Of a stretch of 64,000 nt of DNA, positions 27,698 through 53,381 are shown piece after piece; position 1 is the stretch's first letter; every line of letters begins with the position of its first letter. The notes under the pieces were generated by a model, which saw only the letters and a program-made list of their open reading frames with translations, had not been told where the DNA came from and did no database searches. This DNA is from Acidobacteriota bacterium (GTDB taxonomy: Bacteria; Acidobacteriota; Thermoanaerobaculia; Gp7-AA8), in assembly GCA_019244185.1 (NCBI GenBank), contig JAFATB010000006.1:448001-512000 (forward strand), read 5' to 3'. Both the position numbers and the translations under genes were made by a program.

Positions 27698-28405
27698 ATG
27701 CGAAAGAGTCTTGTGGTCTCGGTGTTTGCTTTGTTGTTGGTCACCGCGTCGGCGTTTGCGGGAGAGAAGCCGGCGATCGGCGTCGCTGAATTCAAGAACG
27801 AAACCTCCGCCTCCTGGTGGTATTCGGACGCGGCGAGCGATCTCGCCGGCATGCTGACGAACGAGCTCGCGAGCACGGGCAAGTTCAAGATCGTCGAGCG
27901 CGCGAAGCTCGGCCCCGTCCTCGACGAGCAGGATCTCGCCGAGTCCGGCCGCATCAAGAAGTCGACCGGCGCGAAGATCGGCAAGCTCACGGGCGCGAAG
28001 TACCTCGTGTTTGCGACGGTCAGCGCGTTCGACACGAAGAGCCGCGGCACCGGCGGCGCGCTGAGCTTCCGCGGCATCAGCGTCGGCGGCAAGAAAGAGG
28101 ACGCGTACATCGCCGTCGATCTCCGCGTCGTGGATACGACGACGGGCGAAGTCGAATACACGCGCACGGTCGAAGGCCGCGCGGCGAGCTACGGCATGTC
28201 GGGCGGCGTCTACCGCGGCGGCTTCGGCGGCGAGCTCGGAAAGTACGAGAACACGCCGACCGGCAAGGCGATCCGCGCCGTCATCGTCGAGATCAGCGAC
28301 TACCTCGCCTGCGCGATGGTCGAGCAGGGCAGCTGCATGGACGAGTACAACGCGAAGGAATCGAGCCGTCGCGAGAAGACCAAGAAAGCGATCAAGCTGG
28401 ACTAG
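27698..28405 (+). CDS. CsgG/HfaB-family exported protein
   Basis: Signal peptide, F.IVER..L..VL.EQ.L, VDLRVVD.TTGE. Confidence 0.85.
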   Translation: MRKSLVVSVFALLLVTASAFAGEKPAIGVAEFKNETSASWWYSDAASDLAGMLTNELASTGKFKIVERAKLGPVLDEQDLAESGRIKKSTGAKIGKLTGAKYLVFATVSAFDTKSRGTGGALSFRGISVGGKKEDAYIAVDLRVVDTTTGEVEYTRTVEGRAASYGMSGGVYRGGFGGELGKYENTPTGKAIRAVIVEISDYLACAMVEQGSCMDEYNAKESSRREKTKKAIKLD

Positions 28406-28435
28406 CTTCAGGAAGGCGCTTCAGCAACGCGGTAG

Positions 28436-28467
28436 CGAAAAAGCCGGCCGGAAGGCCGGCTTTTTCG
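28436..28467 (+). terminator. Intrinsic, probably bidirectional, terminator
   Basis: CGAAAAAGCCGGCC-GGAA-GGCCGGCTTTTTCG. Confidence 0.9.
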
Positions 28468-28661
28468 TCGAATACTTCCGGTGGTGGTCTAGTTTGAACG
28501 CTGAGTCGTAACAGGCGGCACCGTGGCGGCGATGTCTGTCACGTTGAGGACTGCAAGGCACTCCGTTCGGCAAGCCGTTTTGCAGACGACTCCCTCCGTC
28601 AAAGCCTTCCTCTCCCCGCGAAGTTTCCGCCACATCGCTGCCGAAGCGCACAGTATCGCCG

Positions 28662-29538
28662 CTACGCAACTGCGGCAAGCGTCCACAAATCGAGCGCGAG
28701 AAGGTCACTCGCCTTCCAAACATAGTCCGTCAGGCCAGCGGCCATCGCCGGAGTCTTCCCACCGAGCGACTTGTGCTTGCGGCAGAAGTTGTAGAAGACG
28801 ACGGTGATGGCGAGCATGAAGACGTGGTTGTCGAGCTTCTTCGAGAAGCCATTCGTGAGGCGCGTGAAGCGGCGGTTCTGCATCCGCAGCGTGAGGTTCC
28901 ACCGCTCCATGAACGACGTGGATATGTGCTTCGTGATCGGCATCCCGAACGTCGGTCGCTTCTCTACGGCCAGCAGGCGGCCGGGCGAGTATCTACTGGC
29001 CGCACTCCTCGGACTTGTTCCGGTGACCGGCTTACTGTTCGCGTACGTCTTCACCACCTCGGCATGATCGGCCTCGCCGTAGCGGAAGTTCTTCACGATG
29101 GCTTCGAGGTACACGGATAGGCCGTCGGTCGAAATCTGAAGGCGCATCGTCGTGCGGCATCTTCAGATCGCGAATCAGAGCGTCGGCCGCTTCCTGATTC
29201 CGGTCACTCACCATCCACGAGATGAGGAGCTTCGAGTCGGCGTCAAGCGCCGTCCACGTCCAGAGCGAGCCGTAACCTTCCTTGCCCTTCAGATCGGCCG
29301 GAACGTTCTTCTCCTTCGCGTAGCAGAACGACCAGACCTCATCACACTGCACGCGCAGCGTCGGCAGGTAGCGCACCTGAGCGTCATGGAAGCGAAGGCA
29401 CGCTTGACCAATCTCGCGGATGAGACTCAGCACCGTCATCTTCGCGGCGCCGGTCATGCGGCAGGTCGAGGCAATGGAGTTGCCTTCGATGAGGGCGGTC
29501 AGGATCTGCGCGCGCTTCGCAGGTGACAGCTTGTTCAT
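28662..29538 (-). pseudogene. IS1-family DDE transposase with a single-base frameshift near 29156
   Basis: N-terminal part has an HTH, QCDEVWSF and WTWTALD. C-terminal part has STDG, TSFMERWN and RFTRLTNGFSKK. Removing one C from atgCcgc restores DLKMRTTMRLQISTDG. Confidence 0.85.
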
Positions 29539-29544
29539 AACTAC

Positions 29545-29587
29545 AATATATGCTTGAGGGGTCAAGCTGTCAATGCTTGAGGGGTCA
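29545..29587 (-). promoter_or_regulatory. Transposase promoter TTGACA-N17-TATATT with a palindromic operator, leaderless
   Basis: -35 at 29573-29568, -10 at 29550-29545, ATG 6 nt downstream. Spacer contains GCTTGA-GGGG-TCAAGC, and TGCTTGAGGGGTCA repeats at 29574. Confidence 0.75.
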
Positions 29588-29642
29588 CGCTACGCTATGT
29601 AACATGCCGGTCGGACGCGGATTACCGAAAGTAAGTTTGGTG

Positions 29643-29671
29643 TTGACCTGACGCGTAGACGGACCTACATT
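29643..29671 (+). promoter_or_regulatory. sigma70-type promoter TTGACC-N17-TACATT, antisense to the tRNA-like genes
   Basis: Hexamers and 17-nt spacer read directly. Followed by hairpin GATAGCA-CCA-TGCTATC. Confidence 0.5.
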
Positions 29672-29719
29672 GTTACTGATAGCACCATGCTATCGGAGTC
29701 TTTTCTCAGTATCAAAAAG

Positions 29720-29793
29720 TGGCCCCGGCGGGGATCCAACCCGCGACATCCGCGTTAGCAGCGCGGCGTTCTGTGCACCTGAACTACGGGGCC
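29720..29793 (-). tRNA. Non-canonical tRNA, anticodon GCT, short variable loop
   Basis: Fully Watson-Crick cloverleaf GGCCCCG-TA-GTTC(AGGTGCACA)GAAC-G-CCGCG(CTGCTAA)CGCGG-ATGTC-GCGGG(TTGGATC)CCCGC-CGGGGCC-A. CCA is not encoded. Confidence 0.8.
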
Positions 29794-29805
29794 ATAGGTG
29801 GTAAA

Positions 29806-29878
29806 GGTGGAGGTAGAGGGAATCGAACCCTCGGCCAGGGGTCCAAAGTCCGTAGCCGGGAAACCATCCACTACCCCC
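29806..29878 (-). tRNA. tRNA-like RNA with Ala-type acceptor (G3:U70, A73) and TTG loop
   Basis: Acceptor GGGGGTA/TACCTCC-A-CC, T-arm GAGGG(TTCGATT)CCCTC, 3-bp D-stem, irregular long anticodon arm with loop CTTTGGA. Confidence 0.6.
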
Positions 29879-29899
29879 ACGTTAGGGTTATCTGGCGCC

Positions 29900-30472
29900 T
29901 CACTCGTTAGCAGCGGGTGAGGCGTTTTCTTCTTCGTGCTCTTCATCATCATTGGCGGGGTCGTTGACTGCGCTAACGACTTCCGCTGCACCGCCCGCGG
30001 CACGCTTCTTCGTGCCCTTGCCACGCTTCAGGTGCGGGTAGAACTCGACCAAGCCGTAGTGTTCGTCAGGAAGTACCGCGACCTCGTACGTTGATCGCGC
30101 CATACGGACCTTCAGTTCACTCTCGTTGTCCACCTTGCAACCACCGCGACGAATGGCTTCCACAATCTCGCGGAACGGGCGCGCTTGCCCCCGTCGCTTC
30201 AGGTATCGCTTGGCGGCGTCGAGCCCGTCGAGGCCGTAATACTCGTCGGGCCGGATCGAGTAGCCTGACGCCCCGCTATCGGCAGTCGGCGCGTCCAAAC
30301 CGAAGAGTTGCGCGAGCGTACTCTTCGGTTGACCGACGATCTCCTCCAGTGCGTTAAGACCCTGCTGAAGCCGGAGCACTTCTGCCATGCTGGGGTCGGC
30401 TTTCATAGCCATAACTTTCTCGTCGATCTTCCTCTTTAGCTCCTCAGCGGCAGCCAAAATTGCATCACTCAT
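29900..30472 (-). CDS. Coiled-coil + winged-helix (HARE-HTH / RNAP delta-like) protein with Lys tract and acidic tail
   Basis: AAKRYLKRRGQARPFREIVEAI...HYGLVEFYP, then KRGKGTKKR, then DDEEHEEE. SD GAGGA. Confidence 0.75.
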   Translation of the reverse strand: MSDAILAAAEELKRKIDEKVMAMKADPSMAEVLRLQQGLNALEEIVGQPKSTLAQLFGLDAPTADSGASGYSIRPDEYYGLDGLDAAKRYLKRRGQARPFREIVEAIRRGGCKVDNESELKVRMARSTYEVAVLPDEHYGLVEFYPHLKRGKGTKKRAAGGAAEVVSAVNDPANDDEEHEEENASPAANE

Positions 30473-30491
30473 TTGATGTTCCTCATGTCAG

Positions 30492-30526
30492 AACCCAAAT
30501 GTAGGCTCGCGATTTTGGGTTGTCAA
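30492..30526 (-). promoter_or_regulatory. Promoter TTGACA-N17-TACATT overlapped by inverted repeat AACCCAAAT...ATTTTGGGTT
   Basis: -35 at 30526-30521, -10 at 30503-30498. Confidence 0.7.
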
Positions 30527-30637
30527 TATCCGATCTCAAACAAAACTTCGCAAGTTTGAGGCGATTGTCGCGAGAGGAATCATGCGAGGAGGGCGTATTT
30601 AGGACGCTGCCGGATAGTTTATTGCAGTTTAGTTTTC

Positions 30638-30803
30638 CAGACGAGCGCGGTGTACTCGCCCGATGACCGCAAGACATGACAAGCGGCTGAAATTGGCCGC
30701 GCGCTGAAGTCGCGCTGACGGAGGCATTTGCGACTTCGTTTCTGCGAAGTTCAGGCGCTTGTCATTTCTTGCGGTCATCGGGCGAGTACACCGCGCCTGT
30801 CTG
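30638..30803. repeat. Long inverted repeat (60-bp arms, 46-bp spacer with an inner hairpin)
   Basis: 30638-30697 versus the reverse complement of 30744-30803: 54/60 identical. Inner GAAGTCGC/GCGACTTC stem. Confidence 0.9.
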
Positions 30804-30821
30804 AAGGTGTTTTGACGAGTG

Positions 30822-31088
30822 TTATTTCCGACGCTTTTGCCAACGGGCGGTAGCGGCTTTCTTTGCAATCTCGGAGCGTTTTTTCGCGCTCAACGCAACG
30901 GCCCGAGCCGGCCCGCCGATCCTCCCGCCGATACGCCCGAACGCGGCGGCGGCAGCCCGCATCTCGTCCGTGATCTCGACCGGCGGCTCTTCCTCGGATT
31001 TCTCCGCGATCGTCTCCATGATACGGACGGCAGCCTGCGCCTCATCCTCGCGCTTCTTCCTCGGCTTCGTCCTTGACCCCTTAGGCAT
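30822..31088 (-). CDS. Small basic protein of the type often found beside IS1-family transposases (KGG/'histone H1'-like)
   Basis: AAAAFGRIGGRIGGPARA..LS..KRSEIAKKAA.ARW. Confidence 0.8.
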   Translation of the reverse strand: MPKGSRTKPRKKREDEAQAAVRIMETIAEKSEEEPPVEITDEMRAAAAAFGRIGGRIGGPARAVALSAKKRSEIAKKAATARWQKRRK

Positions 31089-31106
31089 AACCTAAGTATA
31101 GGTTCA

Positions 31107-31337
31107 CTACCCGAGCTTGTCGAACGGCCGGAACAACTCCGACGGCGGAACGTCGAGCGCATCCGCCAGCTTGAGGATGTTGTCGAGACAAGGGTTCCGG
31201 TAGCCGCGCTCCACATCACTCACGTAGTTGCGATTCAGTCCGGCGAGTTCCGCGAGCCGCGTCTGTGAGAGTGAACGCTTCGCGCGCAGCTCGCGCAGGT
31301 GCGCGGCGAACCTCTCTCGCGGCGAAGCGGCGATCAT
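31107..31337 (-). CDS. XRE-family HTH regulator (controller-protein-like)
   Basis: LRELR..RSLSQ..LAELAGLNRNYVSDVERG.RNP.L.NI.KLA.AL. Confidence 0.9.
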   Translation of the reverse strand: MIAASPRERFAAHLRELRAKRSLSQTRLAELAGLNRNYVSDVERGYRNPCLDNILKLADALDVPPSELFRPFDKLG

Positions 31338-31402
31338 GCTTTGAGTGTGACGCTTTCGCGCGCTTAACCAACCAGCTATGAGTGTCACATGCTATGCGTG
31401 TT

Positions 31403-31645
31403 ATGGCGCGACGACGAAAGCTCTCCCGTCTCGGTCAGTTTCTGGCCACGAATGGCATCGTCCCGAACGAACTCGCCGATTCCTCAGGCATCAGCAGACA
31501 GCATCTGTGCCGCCTCCGTTATGGCCGCGCCGAGCCGACGCGACCGACGATGATCTGGTTGACGATTGCTTGCCGTCGCCTCCTCGGCGGACGACGACGC
31601 GTTCGGATCACGGAGTTGTTTGACCTCGGCGATGGTCAGCAATGA
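31403..31645 (+). CDS. Cro-like HTH protein
   Basis: ELADSSGISRQHLCRLRYGRAEPT...ELFDL. Confidence 0.75.
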   Translation: MARRRKLSRLGQFLATNGIVPNELADSSGISRQHLCRLRYGRAEPTRPTMIWLTIACRRLLGGRRRVRITELFDLGDGQQ

Positions 31646-31908
31646 AGCGGCGGCGCGCCTACGACACGCCGCTCGGCCACTTCATGCAGGCGCATCGAAT
31701 CGGAACCGCCACGCTCGCCCGAATCGCTGGCATCAGCAGCAGCCACCTTCGCGACCTTCAACGCGGCGGCTCGGAGCCGACGCGGCTCGTGATGATCTGG
31801 CTCGCTGAAGCCGTGTCATATGAGGTCGGTTGGAAGGTCGAAGTCGCCGAGCTGTTCGACCTCATCTTCCACTTCGACCGACGCAGGTTGGTGAGGTGGA
31901 GCCGGTGA
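31642..31908 (+). CDS. Cro-like HTH protein, paralog of the preceding gene
   Basis: LARIAGISSSHLRDLQRGGSEPTR..MIWL...ELFDL. ATGA overlap. Confidence 0.75.
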   Translation: MKRRRAYDTPLGHFMQAHRIGTATLARIAGISSSHLRDLQRGGSEPTRLVMIWLAEAVSYEVGWKVEVAELFDLIFHFDRRRLVRWSR

Positions 31909-32174
31909 TCTCATTCGTAGCCGTCTACGTAGAACGAGACGAAGGGATCGTTGCCTACATCGAGGAACTGCCGGGCGTCGAGGCTACCGGCCTGACGGTC
32001 GAGGAGGCGCGGCGGAACCTGAGATCGGCTCTGGAACTGGTGATCGCGGCGAACCGCCGCTGGACGTGGGAGGCATTCCGCAGAGCACGCATGATGCATC
32101 GGGAAACGCTGTTGCTACCCGGCGATCTCCGGCCTTACCCGGCCAACACTGTTACAACTGCGCGCTCAAACTAG
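31905..32174 (+). CDS. HicB-like antitoxin N-terminal domain protein
   Basis: AYIEELPGVEATG.T.EEARRNL..AL. Stop codon lies inside the right TIR. Confidence 0.8.
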   Translation: MISFVAVYVERDEGIVAYIEELPGVEATGLTVEEARRNLRSALELVIAANRRWTWEAFRRARMMHRETLLLPGDLRPYPANTVTTARSN

Positions 32175-32213
32175 ACCACCACCATACTTCCGCCTGTTTC
32201 GCCAGATTTACGC

Positions 32214-32242
32214 TTGACTTTCGCCCTGTTACCGCCTACATT
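32214..32242 (+). promoter_or_regulatory. lexA promoter TTGACT-N17-TACATT
   Basis: Hexamers read directly. SD GAGGA precedes ATG 32261. Confidence 0.7.
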
Positions 32243-32260
32243 GCGTAGTGCGAGGACGGA

Positions 32261-32902
32261 ATGCGATATCTCACGGAACGGCAGCGGGACATCCTGAACT
32301 TCATCCGCGATTTCCAGAAAGAACGCGGAGTCGCGCCCACCCATCGCGAGATTTGCGACCACTTCGGCTTCTCCTCCTACGGCACGGTCTACAAGCATCT
32401 CTCGCTCCTGCAGAAGAAGGGGCTCATCCGCCGCGACTGGAACCAGAAGCGCGGCGTGGAGCTCGTCGAGCAGGAGCCCGCGGCGCAGGAAGCGCCGCGT
32501 GGCGCGCGCGATGCCGAACGCGAAGGCGTCCGCGAGTTGCCGCTCTTCGGCTACATCGCTGCCGGTCGTCCACTGGCGGTGGAGATCTCGGACGAGACCA
32601 TTCCGGTGCCGCTCCATCTCACCTCGCGCGGCGACAACTACGTGCTGAAGGTGCGCGGCGACTCGATGATCGACGACGGCATCCTCGACGGGGACTTCGT
32701 GATCATCGCCCGGCGCGAGCGCGCCGACAACGGCGAGATGGTTGTCGCGAACGTGAATGGAGAAGTGACGCTCAAACGGCTCTACCAAGAGGGAGATCGC
32801 GTCCGGCTGCAGCCCGCGAACTCGATGATGTCTCCGATCTTTGCCTCTGCTCGTGACGTCGCGGTGCAGGGAGTGGTGGTCGGTCTTATGAGGCGGTTCT
32901 GA
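32261..32902 (+). CDS. lexA: SOS repressor LexA
   Basis: LTERQ..IL, PT.REI, IAAG.P cleavage site, GDSM (catalytic Ser), TLKR (catalytic Lys). Confidence 0.96.
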   Translation: MRYLTERQRDILNFIRDFQKERGVAPTHREICDHFGFSSYGTVYKHLSLLQKKGLIRRDWNQKRGVELVEQEPAAQEAPRGARDAEREGVRELPLFGYIAAGRPLAVEISDETIPVPLHLTSRGDNYVLKVRGDSMIDDGILDGDFVIIARRERADNGEMVVANVNGEVTLKRLYQEGDRVRLQPANSMMSPIFASARDVAVQGVVVGLMRRF

Positions 32903-48356: not shown

Positions 48357-51300
48357 TCAGGGAACGGGAACCAGGTTGCGCGGAGGGTACAGCCGACTCA
48401 GTTCTGAGAATACGAGGTAAGCAGCGAGCGCAGCGCCGGTCAAGCCCGTTGCGCGTTCCCAATAGGTACGACTAAAGAACTTTCCGAAGCCGTCGCCTGT
48501 CGGCGCTCCTGATGGAGGATCACAACTGCAGTTTGCGAGATATTCGGCTTTTCGCGCGGCGAGTTGCGCCTTATCAGTGTCAATTAATCGGCGATGACCG
48601 CGCCGGCTCAACCGCGGCAACTTGTCATCCCCCAGAGCCGCCTCCGGTAACCCGAGCGGATCCTCGTCCAACTCTCCGACACGTTCATCAATCTTCTTTT
48701 GCAAGTTCTCAATCGTCCGAAGCAGGCGACGACAATATTCGGAACTCTTCGGAAGAAGTCCGAACGCATCGAATTCGTTCGTGGGATTAGCTTCGACGTA
48801 TGAGTAACTATTGACGCCACCTGCAACTCCAATCGGATCCGCCTGCGTATACCGCCCCCACCCCGCACGATACCACCGGAAGATGTTGTACGACAGCTCT
48901 CCTCCGCCTGCCGGAGTCTCCTCCTGACCGGGGAGCCGCAGGATCTGGGGGTCGGTCATGTCGCCCGTACGATAGGAAAAGATCGCACCATAGGGCTCGT
49001 ACTCGGCGCGCCAAACGATGGCGGCGGTGGGATCGGTCTGCAGGAGCGGCGTGCCGAGGTGATCGGTGAAGGTGTAGCGGAGGGGGACACTCGCGTCGGT
49101 CGACGCCTGCGCAACCGGTTCGCTGCCGAACCAGATGTAGTCGGTCTCAGGAATCGGGTCGCCGAGGTCGAGCATTGGCGGCTCGAGGCGCACCAGAAGG
49201 TGCAGGTCGGGGGAGTAGACGAAGAGACGCGTGGTTTCGGGATCGCCGACACCTGGGGCGGAGGTATCTGTTACGCGTACGCCGCGGCCGTCGTAGGCAA
49301 AATCGGCGTACGGCTGCGGGAACTGTGAAATAACGCGAGGCGTTCCGGCGAAAAGGTTACGCGCACTGTAGTGGCCATGCGAAGTCTCGTTCCCGGCGGC
49401 GTCTACTGAGACGGTCTGGGTGCCCGTGCTCACCACTGACTGCAAACGCGGAGTGCTGCCAGAGTAGAAGAAACTGAGCGAACGGCTACCCAGTTGCGAT
49501 GACGTCATATTACCCATCGCGTCGTACGTGTAGCTGCCGGTTCCCCACAAGGACGCGCCACTGTTCGCAGTGACGAGCCGATTGAGATCGTCGTAGGCGA
49601 AGTCGCGATCGTAAGCCGCATCCGTGGCATCGTGGATCTCGGTGATGTTGCCGACAGCATCTTCGGCGTACGTGTAATCGGCGATCGTGCCTGACGGGCC
49701 GGACAGGCTGTTCTCCTGCGGCTGATAGCGCGCATTGAAGGCGCTGGTTTTCGTTGTCCCGTTGCCGTACACGACTTCAGTCGCGGGGCCGAACGGTAGA
49801 TAGGAGGCGGAGGTCACGACCGGCGTGGTATCCGCGGTCGCGGACACTGGACGCCGCGCAAAGTCGTATGCATACGTCACCGTACGGCCTGCGGGATAGA
49901 CGATCGAACTGCGATTCCCGGCGGCATCGTAGGCATACAGAGTCGAGAAAACCTTGGTCTCGGCGACCGGAAGTCCGCGCCGCTCGTAGCAATACGTCGT
50001 ATCGCCGGTCGGATCGCTCATCGTCGTGAGACGTCCGATTCCGTTGCCAGCGCTACAGAGATCCTGGTCGTACGTGTAGGTCACCGTCTCCGTATCGAGG
50101 CCGGTGCGGCTCGACTCGGCGGTGAGGAGGCGGCCGAGCGCGTCGTACGTCCGTGACGTCGTTGCGCCGTTTGCGTCCGTCGTGGACGTGACATTCCCCG
50201 CCTTGTCGTAAGCGTAGGTGGTGATTCCCGTCACGGGACTGGTCTGCGTGCGCATTTCGCCGAAGTCGTCGTAGGCGTACGACGTCACGTTGCCGTTCGG
50301 ATCGGTGACGCCGCTCAGATTGCCCTGAACGTCGTAACTGTAGCTCGTTTCGATCTCGCCGTTCGGCGCCGTGGCCAGCGTCTGGCGTACCGATGCCAGA
50401 CGACCTGCAGGATCATACGCGTAGAACGTGTTCGGGCTGTTATGGTTTTCGTCCTGAATGCTCACGACGCGGTTGTCCGCGTCATATGCGTACGCGATGG
50501 CGGCCCCGCCCGGATGCGTGATGCTGCTCAGCCGTCCGTCGCCGTCGTAGGCGTAACTCTCACGACGTTTCTCGACCCACGTGCTGTCTTCCGAAGCGAG
50601 ATAGCGTTCGAGGTTCTTCTTGCCGCTGCCGGAATCGTAGGTCGTGAGGATCTCCTCGCGCAGATCATTCTCGGCCGGCCCGCGCGCAACGCTTTCGACG
50701 CGTCCGCGGGAGTCGTATCCGTACACGGTGACGCCTTGTCCCGCGGGCAGCAACGAGTGAAGCGGCCCGTAGCCGTCGAACGCGCGCACGGTCGTCAGGT
50801 CGGTCGCGCAGAGCGGATCGCTCGTCGTGGAGCAACCGCTGACGCCCTCGAGCGTCGAGGTGATGACGCGCCCGATTTCGTCGGCCGTGGCGGTCGTGAC
50901 GACGCCGTTCGGATCGACCATCCGCAGCACGTTGCCGAAGTCGTCGTAGCTCTCGAGTCGCGTGATGTGTCCTGCAGCGTCACGAACCGCGGCGAGCCGT
51001 CCGCGCAGCTCCGACGGAACCGCGGAGTCGTTCGGGTAATACACGAACGTCGTCGTATCGTCGACGTCGGTCCGCGGTCCATTGACGCTCTTCCGCAACC
51101 GCGGCTGCGGCAGCCCGAGCCACGCCGACGCGAACGTGCCGCCGGGATTGAACACCGCGCCCTCGGTGACCGCGTCATACAACGTCGTCGTGGTGGTGCG
51201 CGTCTCCTCTCCCGCCGCCGTACGACCGGTGACCGCGTGCTCCAGCACCGCACCGGACAGGCTGTCATACGTAAAGGTCTCGCGTCGCAATGCGCCCGAG

Positions 51301-53381
51301 GCGACGACGCTCGCCACGGCGATTTCCGTCGCTTTGTCGGGCCACGCCGGATCGGCGTATTGGTAGGTCGTCTCTGCCGTGGCGCTGGTGGACGTGAGCG
51401 TGGCGTCGGCCAATTCGGCCGAGGTCATGCGACAGTGGGTTTGACTGCTCGCCGGATCGCAGCCTGACGGACGAAGGAAACTCGTCGTCGCGGTGAGATG
51501 CGTTGCGTCGAAGGTGCTCGCGGTGACGTATCCGCTCGCGTCCTGACGGCGAATTGCGTGGCCATTGCGGTCATAGACCGCGACCTCGTCACGCGAACCG
51601 CAACTGCTGCAACCGCCGTTTCGTTCGACTGCACGATAGGCGCCGCCAACCGGACGGAGCGTGGTTTCGGTGACGCCACCGCCCGCCGTCGTGACGCGCG
51701 TCATGCTCTCGCCCGGCGTGTCGGTGGAGAGATCGTATTCGATCGTCGCGATCTCGTCGGAAGGTCCGATCGACGAGATGCCGCGGCCGGCGGTGTCGTA
51801 ACTGTGCTGCTCGATGACATGGCCGACGGCGTCGCGCGCAACCGTCATCAGACCGTCCGTGTACTCGTACGTCCGCCACAGGTGCGCCGGACCATCGACT
51901 TGCGTGAGGAGCCCGTTTTCATCGTATTGATACGTCCAGGTGCCGCTCGGGCTCACAATGGACTGCACGGTGCCGTTTTCAATCGCGAGCGTCCAGGTCT
52001 GGCCCGTCCACGTATCCGTGGCGGTCATGCCGACGAGGTCGAACGTCTCCTCATCCCATTGGCGTTCGATGTGGATTGCGCGGCCCGTCGTGATGTCGCG
52101 AATTCCGCTCACATACAGTCCAGTGAAGGACGTCTCGTAATTGCTGCCCGCCGGACGATAGGCGACGTTCCCGTCCTCGTCGATGCGGTAGCTGTCGGGC
52201 ATGCTTCTCCCCTGCGGCCAGATCTGCGCCCCATCCGGCCCGAATGCAACCTGTTCATTGTCAACCGTCGTGAGGTGCAGCACGGACGCGTCGGAGGACA
52301 GCTCCTCGTAGTTCAATACCTGGTCGAACATCGACGTCCAGCCGCGCCCGAAGAAACCGACATCGCCTTCCCCACTGTCGTAAGTACGAGCCAGCGCTCG
52401 TTCCATCAACGGCGGCAGTGGGTCGACCTCGGAAAGCCGTACGTTGCCGTCAGCCAGCGTGACGGGATCTCCGGCCGACGCGGCTTTGCAGTCGCAGTCC
52501 ACCGCGCCGTATCCGCGCTGAACGACATTGCACGCGATGTCGGGTGACCACGACGCCGCTTCGACCAGGATCTGCACCTGCCGCGCGTTCGACGGCGTCT
52601 CGAAATTCTCCACGACGAAGGGCCCGCCATCCTCGAGCTCGGGATCGTCGCCGGACCATTCCTTGATGACCTGCTGGGGGGTCGCGCGCCCATGACCATC
52701 GATCCACGCAAGCGCAAAAATCGTCAGGGATCGGTCGACCGACTCGGTCGCAAAGTGGAAATCGACGGTCACCGTCGCATGACCGGCACCGTTCTTCCTC
52801 ACTGTAACGACGGGGTCGGCGAAGTGACCCGGTGTGCAGACGGAAAGCCACGTCGTTACGCCGAACGTGGGCTCATGGATCACAGGATTGTCCCAGTACC
52901 CGAAATCGCATGCATGTTCCGTGGAGCTCACGACGGTGCTTTGCCCGCCGGTAGGCGTCATGGTGACGTGCAGCGACTGCGCCTGCGTCGTGGCGAGCCC
53001 GTGCAGATCGACCTCTTCGCCGGCGATCGGTACGTATGCGGCGTCCGGATCATCCGCCGCGACAAAGCCTTCACCGCACGCCGGCAGTTGGTGCACGACG
53101 GGCGCCGAGACGTGTGTGTAGGTGTGACCCGCCAGCGACGCCAGCCAGGTGGTCGGCTCGTGCGACCAGACCGTCTCAGTCCCCAACGTCGACCACGTTT
53201 TGTCGGCGTAGACGCCTTGTTTACCGAGGTACGTCACGCCGACCCGCTTGACTCCGCGCGGAACGACGAAACTGGGTCCACAGTCCTGCTGCGGCGACAG
53301 ATCACAGGCGAGGAGCGGCTGCGTCAAAAGAGACCAGACGAGACACGTCGCCACAAAACACCGCTCTGCCGAAGCGCGCAT
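48357..53381 (-). CDS. Rhs/YD-repeat polymorphic toxin with Sec signal peptide
   Basis: DUF6531-like GDPV...GFFGRGW, many Y.YD repeats, core end GRYTQADPIG..GG.N.Y.Y...NP....D.FGL, C-terminal domain of about 130 aa. Confidence 0.93.
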   Translation of the reverse strand: MRASAERCFVATCLVWSLLTQPLLACDLSPQQDCGPSFVVPRGVKRVGVTYLGKQGVYADKTWSTLGTETVWSHEPTTWLASLAGHTYTHVSAPVVHQLPACGEGFVAADDPDAAYVPIAGEEVDLHGLATTQAQSLHVTMTPTGGQSTVVSSTEHACDFGYWDNPVIHEPTFGVTTWLSVCTPGHFADPVVTVRKNGAGHATVTVDFHFATESVDRSLTIFALAWIDGHGRATPQQVIKEWSGDDPELEDGGPFVVENFETPSNARQVQILVEAASWSPDIACNVVQRGYGAVDCDCKAASAGDPVTLADGNVRLSEVDPLPPLMERALARTYDSGEGDVGFFGRGWTSMFDQVLNYEELSSDASVLHLTTVDNEQVAFGPDGAQIWPQGRSMPDSYRIDEDGNVAYRPAGSNYETSFTGLYVSGIRDITTGRAIHIERQWDEETFDLVGMTATDTWTGQTWTLAIENGTVQSIVSPSGTWTYQYDENGLLTQVDGPAHLWRTYEYTDGLMTVARDAVGHVIEQHSYDTAGRGISSIGPSDEIATIEYDLSTDTPGESMTRVTTAGGGVTETTLRPVGGAYRAVERNGGCSSCGSRDEVAVYDRNGHAIRRQDASGYVTASTFDATHLTATTSFLRPSGCDPASSQTHCRMTSAELADATLTSTSATAETTYQYADPAWPDKATEIAVASVVASGALRRETFTYDSLSGAVLEHAVTGRTAAGEETRTTTTTLYDAVTEGAVFNPGGTFASAWLGLPQPRLRKSVNGPRTDVDDTTTFVYYPNDSAVPSELRGRLAAVRDAAGHITRLESYDDFGNVLRMVDPNGVVTTATADEIGRVITSTLEGVSGCSTTSDPLCATDLTTVRAFDGYGPLHSLLPAGQGVTVYGYDSRGRVESVARGPAENDLREEILTTYDSGSGKKNLERYLASEDSTWVEKRRESYAYDGDGRLSSITHPGGAAIAYAYDADNRVVSIQDENHNSPNTFYAYDPAGRLASVRQTLATAPNGEIETSYSYDVQGNLSGVTDPNGNVTSYAYDDFGEMRTQTSPVTGITTYAYDKAGNVTSTTDANGATTSRTYDALGRLLTAESSRTGLDTETVTYTYDQDLCSAGNGIGRLTTMSDPTGDTTYCYERRGLPVAETKVFSTLYAYDAAGNRSSIVYPAGRTVTYAYDFARRPVSATADTTPVVTSASYLPFGPATEVVYGNGTTKTSAFNARYQPQENSLSGPSGTIADYTYAEDAVGNITEIHDATDAAYDRDFAYDDLNRLVTANSGASLWGTGSYTYDAMGNMTSSQLGSRSLSFFYSGSTPRLQSVVSTGTQTVSVDAAGNETSHGHYSARNLFAGTPRVISQFPQPYADFAYDGRGVRVTDTSAPGVGDPETTRLFVYSPDLHLLVRLEPPMLDLGDPIPETDYIWFGSEPVAQASTDASVPLRYTFTDHLGTPLLQTDPTAAIVWRAEYEPYGAIFSYRTGDMTDPQILRLPGQEETPAGGGELSYNIFRWYRAGWGRYTQADPIGVAGGVNSYSYVEANPTNEFDAFGLLPKSSEYCRRLLRTIENLQKKIDERVGELDEDPLGLPEAALGDDKLPRLSRRGHRRLIDTDKAQLAARKAEYLANCSCDPPSGAPTGDGFGKFFSRTYWERATGLTGAALAAYLVFSELSRLYPPRNLVPVP

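Follow-up and report, generated by a model that had tools for sequence, protein, structure and literature searches.

A 64,000-nucleotide (nt) stretch of an Acidobacteriota genome (assembly GCA_019244185.1, contig JAFATB010000006.1, positions 448,001 to 512,000; hereafter, the window) contains a 74-nt tRNA gene with the serine anticodon GCU and, about 180 nt 3′ of it on the same strand, a gene for an IS1-like DDE transposase preceded by a promoter-like site (Table 1). Comparison with homologous loci in the genus revealed that the rare anticodon adjoins the single gene in which its rare cognate codon is conserved, and the identity elements of the tRNA indicate that, judging from its sequence, its body is of the arginine type and descends from tRNA-Arg(UCU).

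The locus is a genuine, structurally constrained tRNA gene. It is the sole ARAGORN tRNA call in the window (29719-29793, anticodon gct) and, in the 64 kb, the sole match to Rfam RF00005 above the gathering threshold (60.7 bits against 29, E = 1.1e-10). The cmscan alignment and the minimum free energy fold agree on stems of 7, 4, 5, and 5 standard pairs (21 of 21, with zero mismatches). The anticodon loop is CUGCUAA, the T-loop UUGGAUC, and the D-loop AGGUGCACA. Together with the family alignment described below, these data confirm a preliminary description of the locus, made from the letters of the window, as a class-I-shaped tRNA with anticodon GCU, a 5-nt variable loop, discriminator A73, and the elbow pair C19:G56. 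Because A73 is followed directly by C and then by a run of T (U in the RNA), no CCA is encoded, unlike in the host's other compared tRNA genes; the host genome (5.3 Mb in 26 contigs, with 55 ARAGORN tRNA calls and 47 Rfam tRNA matches) has three CCA-adding/poly(A) polymerase homologues. It also has an ordinary 94-nt tRNA-Ser(gct) gene at C14:270000-270093. Positions 28600-30600 are identical, with 0 differences and 0 gaps, in contigs from three public DNA runs, which are a possible source of the assembly.

The transposase gene of the window carries a one-base insertion that changes the frame near 29156-29163: a 292-amino-acid (aa) homologue, L003, matches it in two frames at 70-73% identity, with a single-base gap in the alignment, and the contigs from the three runs show no indel variation at the frameshift. 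The gene is intact in the same-genus genomes G012, G006, G004, and G436 and truncated in G433. It is referred to here as IS1-like because the scores of an intact homologue fall below the curated cut-offs (NCBIfam transpos_IS1, 54.3 bits against 100; Pfam DDE_Tnp_IS1, 23.5 against 24.1).

Table 1. Features of the tRNA locus and the surrounding interval (window coordinates; ORF, open reading frame; HTH, helix-turn-helix; tmRNA, transfer-messenger RNA)
Feature	Position	Strand	Evidence
Class-I tRNA	29720..29793	-	ARAGORN; Rfam 60.7 bits; fold; family alignment; family model 87.1 bits
IS1-like DDE transposase gene, AGT-rich (AGT 7, AGC 0), frameshifted	28671..29538	-	L003 homologue alignment, codon counts
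Promoter-like TTGACA-17-TATATT and two 19-nt direct repeats (29550-29568, 29573-29591)	29545..29591	-	Directly 5′ of transposase start
tRNA-like element, 11 nt upstream of tRNA	29805..29878	-	Partial tmRNA-model match; fold
Hairpin, 7-nt loop CUGCUAA identical to tRNA anticodon loop	29895..29924	-	Fold
190-aa ORF (ORF190), no family match	29900..30472	-	Promoter-like site at 30526-30498
ORF88a (30822-31088) and HTH regulator (31107-31388)	30822..31388	-	Pfam HTH_3; tblastn homologues
CsgG-like gene, left border of variable interval	27698..28405	+	Pfam; synteny in six genomes
lexA-like gene, right border	32261..32902	+	Pfam LexA_DNA_bind and Peptidase_S24; synteny in six genomes

Relatives and structural conservation of the tRNA

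Relatives were sought with a degenerate pattern that combined this tRNA body with an RCU anticodon (R being A or G). The pattern had 0 matches in viral contigs and was found at 8 loci in a collection of one genome per species covering 185,579 species, plus 4 metagenome contigs; L132 and L141, whose ORFs are 100% identical to those of L003 and L139, were dropped as redundant. The Arg-like members, with A20 and A or G at position 73, came from records of Acidobacteriota, Chloroflexota, and Actinomycetota. A second, Asn-like group of class-I tRNA(GCU), with U1:A72 and C73, was observed in three Proteobacteria (Ideonella, Pseudomonas, and Lysobacter records; L131:2827-2899, L133:4019-4090, and L134:3572-3643), each tRNA lying directly 5′ of a gene for a conserved protein of ~770-790 aa without a Pfam or NCBIfam match. 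Intact homologues in G012, G006, and G004, found through a protein search with the neighbouring gene and a search with a family model, have the anticodon ACU, G73, and an encoded CCA, and among the four genus copies only the window tRNA has G34, A73, no CCA, and C19:G56.

An alignment of 11 Arg-like tRNAs, excluding the decayed remnant L179 and the three Asn-like tRNAs, was used to evaluate covariation. Over the cloverleaf plus the 18:55 and 19:56 pairs, 99.2% of 253 cells are paired, and compensatory (both-sided) changes occur in 16 of 23 pairs among these tRNAs from several phyla, the set having been collected in part through a pattern in which the D stem and some of the T stem were prescribed, and having passed a filter that required mostly paired stems at extraction (13 of 13 loci passed). 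None of 500 shuffles scored equally high, slid partners scored clearly lower, and the acceptor and anticodon stems, which the pattern left unfixed, account for 11 of the 16 covarying pairs. The window and G012 tRNAs differ by compensatory changes at five stem pairs and at 19:56, with no pair broken. The extent of pairing, the compensatory changes, and the pair-preserving double change at 19:56 suggest that the fold has been selected, at least for most of its history, rather than being that of a decaying pseudogene, as had been proposed from the window sequence.

It is rather unlikely, in our estimate, that the family once worked and that the window copy is an orphaned relic, decaying and no longer functional in translation. 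Such a history would account for the frameshift in the partner gene, for the four features private to the window copy among the genus copies, for the extra ~85 nt that separate this tRNA from the transposase promoter, and for the fate of the tRNA in two other genomes, being visibly a decayed remnant in G436 and deleted in G433. However, all 21 stem pairs of the window copy are intact, its 19:56 change is compensated, and it is the second best of all matches to the family model (87.1 bits). Nor are A73 and the missing CCA signs of decay in themselves, being shared by two unrelated GCU members, L130 and L139.

Within the 11-tRNA alignment, G18 and A20 are invariant (11/11), and ten of the 11 members have G at column 19 and C at column 56, the window copy alone having C19 and G56. 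The D-loop of phage TCT genes ends in GGACA, and therefore the numbering here is G18, C19, A20; alignment with the 10 relatives upholds the numbering under which the inverted pair was originally recognized. The swap is not evident as a trait of the family, as a test of D/T-loop co-variation among homologues might have revealed; instead, it is private to the window copy, and the homologues have G19:C56. A heuristic parse of 533 distinct tRNAs, drawn from the genome and from all collected loci, gave the 19:56 pair as G:C in 522, A:U in 5, U:A in 4, C:G in 1 (the window), and unpaired C/C in 1, so that compensated non-G:C pairs amount to 10 of 533; nearly all 19:56 variants came from viral contigs. 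Phage tRNAs with A19:U56 or U19:A56, in which both sides have changed, were observed in L009, L020, L031, L035, L059, L066, L067, L071, and L090. In L003, L180, and L140, position 55 is C instead of the near-universal U (pseudouridine), with a possible G18:C55 pair. Because other Watson-Crick pairs occur at 19:56, the elbow pair appears simply to be maintained, and C19:G56 is best regarded as a real, pair-preserving private variant rather than a special device.

Identity elements of the tRNA body

According to Table 1 of PMC9976931, arginine identity in bacteria is determined by A20, C35, U or G at position 36, A or G at position 73, G2:C71, and C3:G70, and the window tRNA has this listed set in full (with U36 and A73); relatives in the family have C2:G71 instead of G2:C71. 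In the host genome, A follows G18G19 in all five tRNA-Arg genes but in just two of the 50 remaining ARAGORN calls, each of them doubtful, and the acceptor stem and discriminator of the host tRNA-Arg(CCU) are identical to those of the window tRNA. Phage matches to the region were only tRNA-Arg genes, from two Caulobacter phages (four records, 77.6% identity). For viral-contig tRNAs sharing this D stem and A37A38, the matches listed had the anticodons GTT (46), TCT (42), CAT (9), and others, with no RCT anticodon among them.

A family covariance model (R1), built from the 11 members and searched over 35 genus genomes (including the unpublished G002 and G024), placed four family members at the top (93.7, 87.1, 87.0, and 86.5 bits), followed, among the loci listed, by canonical tRNA-Arg(tct) in 26 of 26 cases at ~84 bits. 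The possibility that the gene is an att-type copy of a host tRNA, raised in the preliminary description as one that would undermine it, was rejected, since the closest host tRNA, a tRNA-Asp, is just 74% globally identical, followed by tRNA-Arg genes at 0.70 and 0.69.

The window tRNA thus has the class-I shape of bacterial and phage tRNA-Arg(UCU/CCU) along with A20, C35, U36, a purine at position 73, G2:C71, and C3:G70. In contrast to those tRNAs, it has G34 (A34 in relatives), so that its anticodon pairs with AGY (AGC and AGT) rather than with the arginine codons AGR, as well as C19:G56, no CCA, and a transposase-like neighbour. With bacterial tRNA-Ser(GCU) it has in common the anticodon and the anticodon loop, but the 5-nt variable loop is not that of a class II tRNA such as the 94-nt host tRNA-Ser(gct), the discriminator is A73 rather than G73 (of the 11 family members, five have G73 and six A73), and the body is unrelated. 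The short variable loop and A73 agree with the earlier view that this is not a substrate type for seryl-tRNA synthetase (SerRS).

The claim that the body lies one anticodon change away from tRNA-Ile(GAU) did not hold. With respect to the listed bacterial isoleucine set, the window tRNA agrees only at A73, C4:G69, U12:A23, and U36, whereas the determinants A35, C29:G41, and U20/U21 are replaced by C35, G29:C41, A20, and A21. An isoleucine-like body with a serine anticodon, whose swapped elbow would evade elbow-reading factors, is consequently most improbable: although A73, C4:G69, and U12:A23 are common to the isoleucine set, A20 and C35 point to arginine, the nearest genes are tRNA-Arg, and the occurrence of other compensated 19:56 pairs is consistent with simple maintenance of the elbow.

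Codon usage and genomic setting of the transposase gene

AGT is the rarest serine codon of the host, with 4316 occurrences against 41474 of AGC in ORFs genome-wide (AGT, 9.4%). In the six lineage copies of the transposase gene, the proportions are reversed (Table 2), although G or C occupies 0.73-0.86 of their third codon positions (GC3). Homologues elsewhere in the phylum contain 0-4 AGT and 1-11 AGC each (29 genes, one of which, L149, is from the unpublished genome G185), and seven same-genus copies of other lineages contain 0-3 AGT and 3-10 AGC. None of the main conclusions depends solely on the unpublished genomes G002, G024, and G185. Among all ORFs, the C-terminal part of the window gene has the second-highest AGT excess. 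First is a 1674-aa ORF at 48357-53381 on the minus strand, in a lower-GC region, with the top AGT excess of all genome ORFs (AGT 19, AGC 40).

Table 2. AGT and AGC codons in the six lineage copies of the transposase gene
Gene copy	AGT	AGC
Window	7	0
G012	9	1
G436	8	3
G006	10	0
G004	9	1
G433	8	0

In a six-way codon alignment, the six columns at which all copies have AGY contain 35 AGT and one AGC, the latter in G436, the genome with the decayed tRNA. As a comparison, 31 conserved N/D/H/Y/F/C columns contain 39 T-ending and 141 C-ending codons. All-T columns are thus found at 5 of 6 AGY and 0 of 31 other columns, cells within a column not being independent. AGT bias was looked for as a general trait of the neighbours of RCU tRNAs and was not found in the IS1595 genes beside the RCU tRNAs of L130, L135, and L138 or in the gene beside the RCU tRNA of L136; the remaining island genes are likewise without AGT bias.

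The same interval, from the CsgG-like gene to lexA, holds the transposase gene in six genus genomes, between conserved flanks with cheW, MCP, FHA, and GGDEF genes on one side and HTH, epimerase, tsaD, and valS genes on the other. The interval (window 28400-32260; L177 7500-13900) is a variable genus island of HTH regulators and unknown ORFs, in which a module is ordered as HTH regulator, small ORF, variable genes, tRNA, and transposase gene, with one orientation in the window and G004 and the opposite one in G012, G006, and G436. In G012, G006, and G004, an intact tRNA(ACU) precedes the transposase gene by 97-99 nt, compared with the longer distance in the window; the spacer between tRNA and promoter is alignable in these three genomes, and nothing alignable lies upstream of the tRNA. 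The promoter-like element is kept in five lineage copies (window, L003, L179, L180, and L181) and missing in L182. Homologues of the ORF88a/HTH module were found by tblastn inside the same interval in G012, G006, G004, and G436, with neighbouring island genes only in G433; in G012, a gene combining HTH and Peptidase_M78 lies just before the tRNA. Given the promoter-like site upstream of it, ORF190 may be co-transcribed with the tRNA and the tRNA-like element.

Two further RNA elements lie beside the tRNA. The tRNA-like element has an acceptor stem with G3:U70 and A73, the alanine signature, together with a canonical T arm, and its D and anticodon regions are irregular. It scores 39.6 bits against the Rfam tmRNA model (gathering threshold 47) and matches the ends of the model only, with 26 nt replacing 328; both the gathering score and the mRNA-like tag region that characterize tmRNA are thus missing. 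It differs from the ends of the host tmRNA, and derivation by deletion from that tmRNA or from tRNA-Ser is unsupported, the T arm alone being alike; no such element was seen ahead of the tRNA in relatives. The hairpin folds at -16.2 kcal/mol (z = -4.4; 0 of 200 shuffles fold as well), lies in the last codons of ORF190, and scores as a terminator on the plus strand. An 11-mer common to the hairpin and the anticodon arm has two copies in the window, where 0.04 would be expected.

The IS1-like family occurs in 77 of 401 sampled genomes of the phylum, and no tRNA lies within ~1.5 kb at 25 of 29 phylum IS1-like loci, for which reason the tRNA was rejected as a regular cargo of these elements. Searches for inverted repeats at the element ends gave weak pairs only, with one lineage copy per genome, and a motif shared downstream of the tRNAs of L135 and L138 has no inverted partner. 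A tRNA or tRNA-like gene lies within 300 nt at 3 of 36 IS1-like loci outside the lineage: a tRNA-Leu(tag) that precedes the transposase gene by 97 nt, in the same orientation (L148), an irregular 75-nt "Ala(tgc)" gene ~136 nt upstream (L184), and an irregular 75-nt class-I "Ser(gga)" gene ~270 nt past the transposase 3′ end (L164). These cases hint at a tendency of the IS1-like family to be located next to tRNA genes. Likewise, of 8 independent Arg-like RCU tRNA loci, 5 have an IS1-like or IS1595-family gene at a distance of ~300 nt or less.

Such adjacencies, and the repetition of the anticodon loop in the nearby hairpin, would be compatible with a non-translational role, the tRNA serving as an insertion target or landmark for this IS1-like family, as a signal for RNA processing, or as an RNA that a CUGCUAA-loop-binding protein would recognize as ligand or decoy, with the AGT bias caused otherwise. 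We consider this quite unlikely, since a target preference would leave unexplained why a rare anticodon should match a rare conserved codon, and why the anticodon loop and the set of determinants that includes A20 have been conserved over a long time.

Charging, decoding, and competing explanations

The host genome contains one arginyl-tRNA synthetase (ArgRS) gene (tRNA-synt_1d match) and one SerRS gene (Seryl_tRNA_N match). Because all listed arginine determinants are present and there is no long variable arm for SerRS, charging by the single host ArgRS would be most likely. In the mechanism proposed here, a descendant of the tRNA-Arg(UCU) type with an AGY-reading anticodon, GCU in the window and ACU in the three closest relatives, would insert arginine at AGC and AGU in the window genome and, in the relatives, at AGU. 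The transposase gene would depend on this tRNA for translation speed or for its product, as it has kept AGT against the strong GC3 bias of the genome. We infer charging with arginine, ribosomal decoding, and coupling to the gene from the sequence patterns described above, and consider the chance about even that an ArgRS-charged tRNA decoding AGY is coupled to the IS1-like transposase gene. Mischarging that recodes AGY, one of the outcomes foreseen in the preliminary description, is thus retained as the leading reading, with an arginine-type body in place of the isoleucine-like one. More tentatively, the Arg-charged tRNA(ACU/GCU) may be a private decoder that sets the make-up or yield of the protein of one possibly domesticated IS1-like gene, amounting to sense-codon recoding confined to that gene; this narrower proposal is possible but clearly less probable.

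The placement of the AGT codons bears on which residue is inserted. Four or five of them fall in a 15-codon stretch immediately ahead of a conserved RYSP motif. In favour of arginine, besides the identity set, at a column in the HTH region three copies have AGT and two have CGT or CGC, where the outgroups have K in 23, R in 5, and S in 3 of 34. At seven serine-conserved columns, TCN is used in 41 of 41 cells, a result that discriminates little because the TCN and AGY sets rarely interchange. Overall, the pattern fits codons placed where either residue would be tolerated, in which case the conserved feature would be the reliance on the tRNA itself.

This placement would also fit a codon-supply or gating tRNA that speeds or permits the decoding of clustered rare AGU, the inserted residue being minor, or serine by another route. 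In favour of such a role, the AGT codons occupy positions that vary among outgroups or a lineage-specific insertion, they cluster as described above, they are absent from the strictly conserved serine and arginine columns, and AGT is the rarest serine codon of the genome. However, the host tRNA-Ser(GCU) can read AGU by wobble, so that decoding capacity is already available, the tRNA lacks the long variable arm needed for the one SerRS, and the serine-column result barely discriminates. We regard this explanation as unlikely.

Several observations weigh against an Arg-charged tRNA coupled to the transposase gene. The invariant AGT columns align with outgroup G (33/34), with E, with a mix of R/T/V/K, or with a lineage-specific insertion, and 16 arginine-conserved columns use CGN or AGR in 79 cells and AGT in 0, so that AGT does not appear to be used as a full arginine synonym. 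An Arg-charged GCU tRNA should misread the common AGC (41474 codons), at a cost. The adjacency of tRNA and transposase gene could stem from insertion, as a preference for tRNA flanks is possible in view of the 3 of 36 and 5 of 8 adjacencies, and the IS1595 genes beside other RCU tRNAs are free of AGT bias. The covariation set was in part guided by the search pattern and the pairing filter. Finally, the window copy may be orphaned or a late form, since its partner gene is frameshifted and its G34, A73, and missing CCA differ from the relatives.

With these reservations, the proposed Arg-charged, AGY-reading tRNA can be compared to known systems. Phages and mobile elements carry tRNAs matched to the element's own codon usage, and here, too, an accessory tRNA stands beside a mobile-type gene rich in a cognate codon that is rare in the host. 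Unlike in those cases, identity and anticodon disagree, and the element is a single-copy, syntenic IS1-like gene rather than a phage. Natural bacterial tRNAs of hybrid identity, which mistranslate, include tRNAProX and the allo-tRNAs, as reviewed in PMC11415595. As described there, these likewise combine the identity elements of one amino acid with the anticodon of another and are rare and patchily distributed, and the A34 of the relatives is also found in tRNAProX. The present case differs from the types described in that arginine identity is combined with a serine anticodon and a single neighbouring gene has conserved cognate codons. In contrast to the tRNAProX type, no synthetase paralogue is co-encoded, the genome having one ArgRS and one SerRS. 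The section of that review on other bacterial hybrid cases lists no such tRNA, and a literature search, which left supplements and ~1.7 million PubMed Central articles outside its reach, found no description of an IS-linked tRNA or of a tRNA with arginine identity and a serine anticodon.

Natural tRNAs in which charging identity and anticodon are mismatched are rare, and those described involve Pro, Sec/Cys, or Ser bodies. An apparently arginine-type body with a serine anticodon has now been seen in several phyla and, in one genus, has long been conserved beside a gene with the cognate codon. Annotation pipelines will label such genes tRNA-Ser. The 19:56 variants further suggest that the G19:C56 elbow pair is replaceable by other Watson-Crick pairs in working tRNAs. 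If the proposed decoding is true, the locus would allow a direct test of local recoding of a sense codon or of transposase expression gated by codons.

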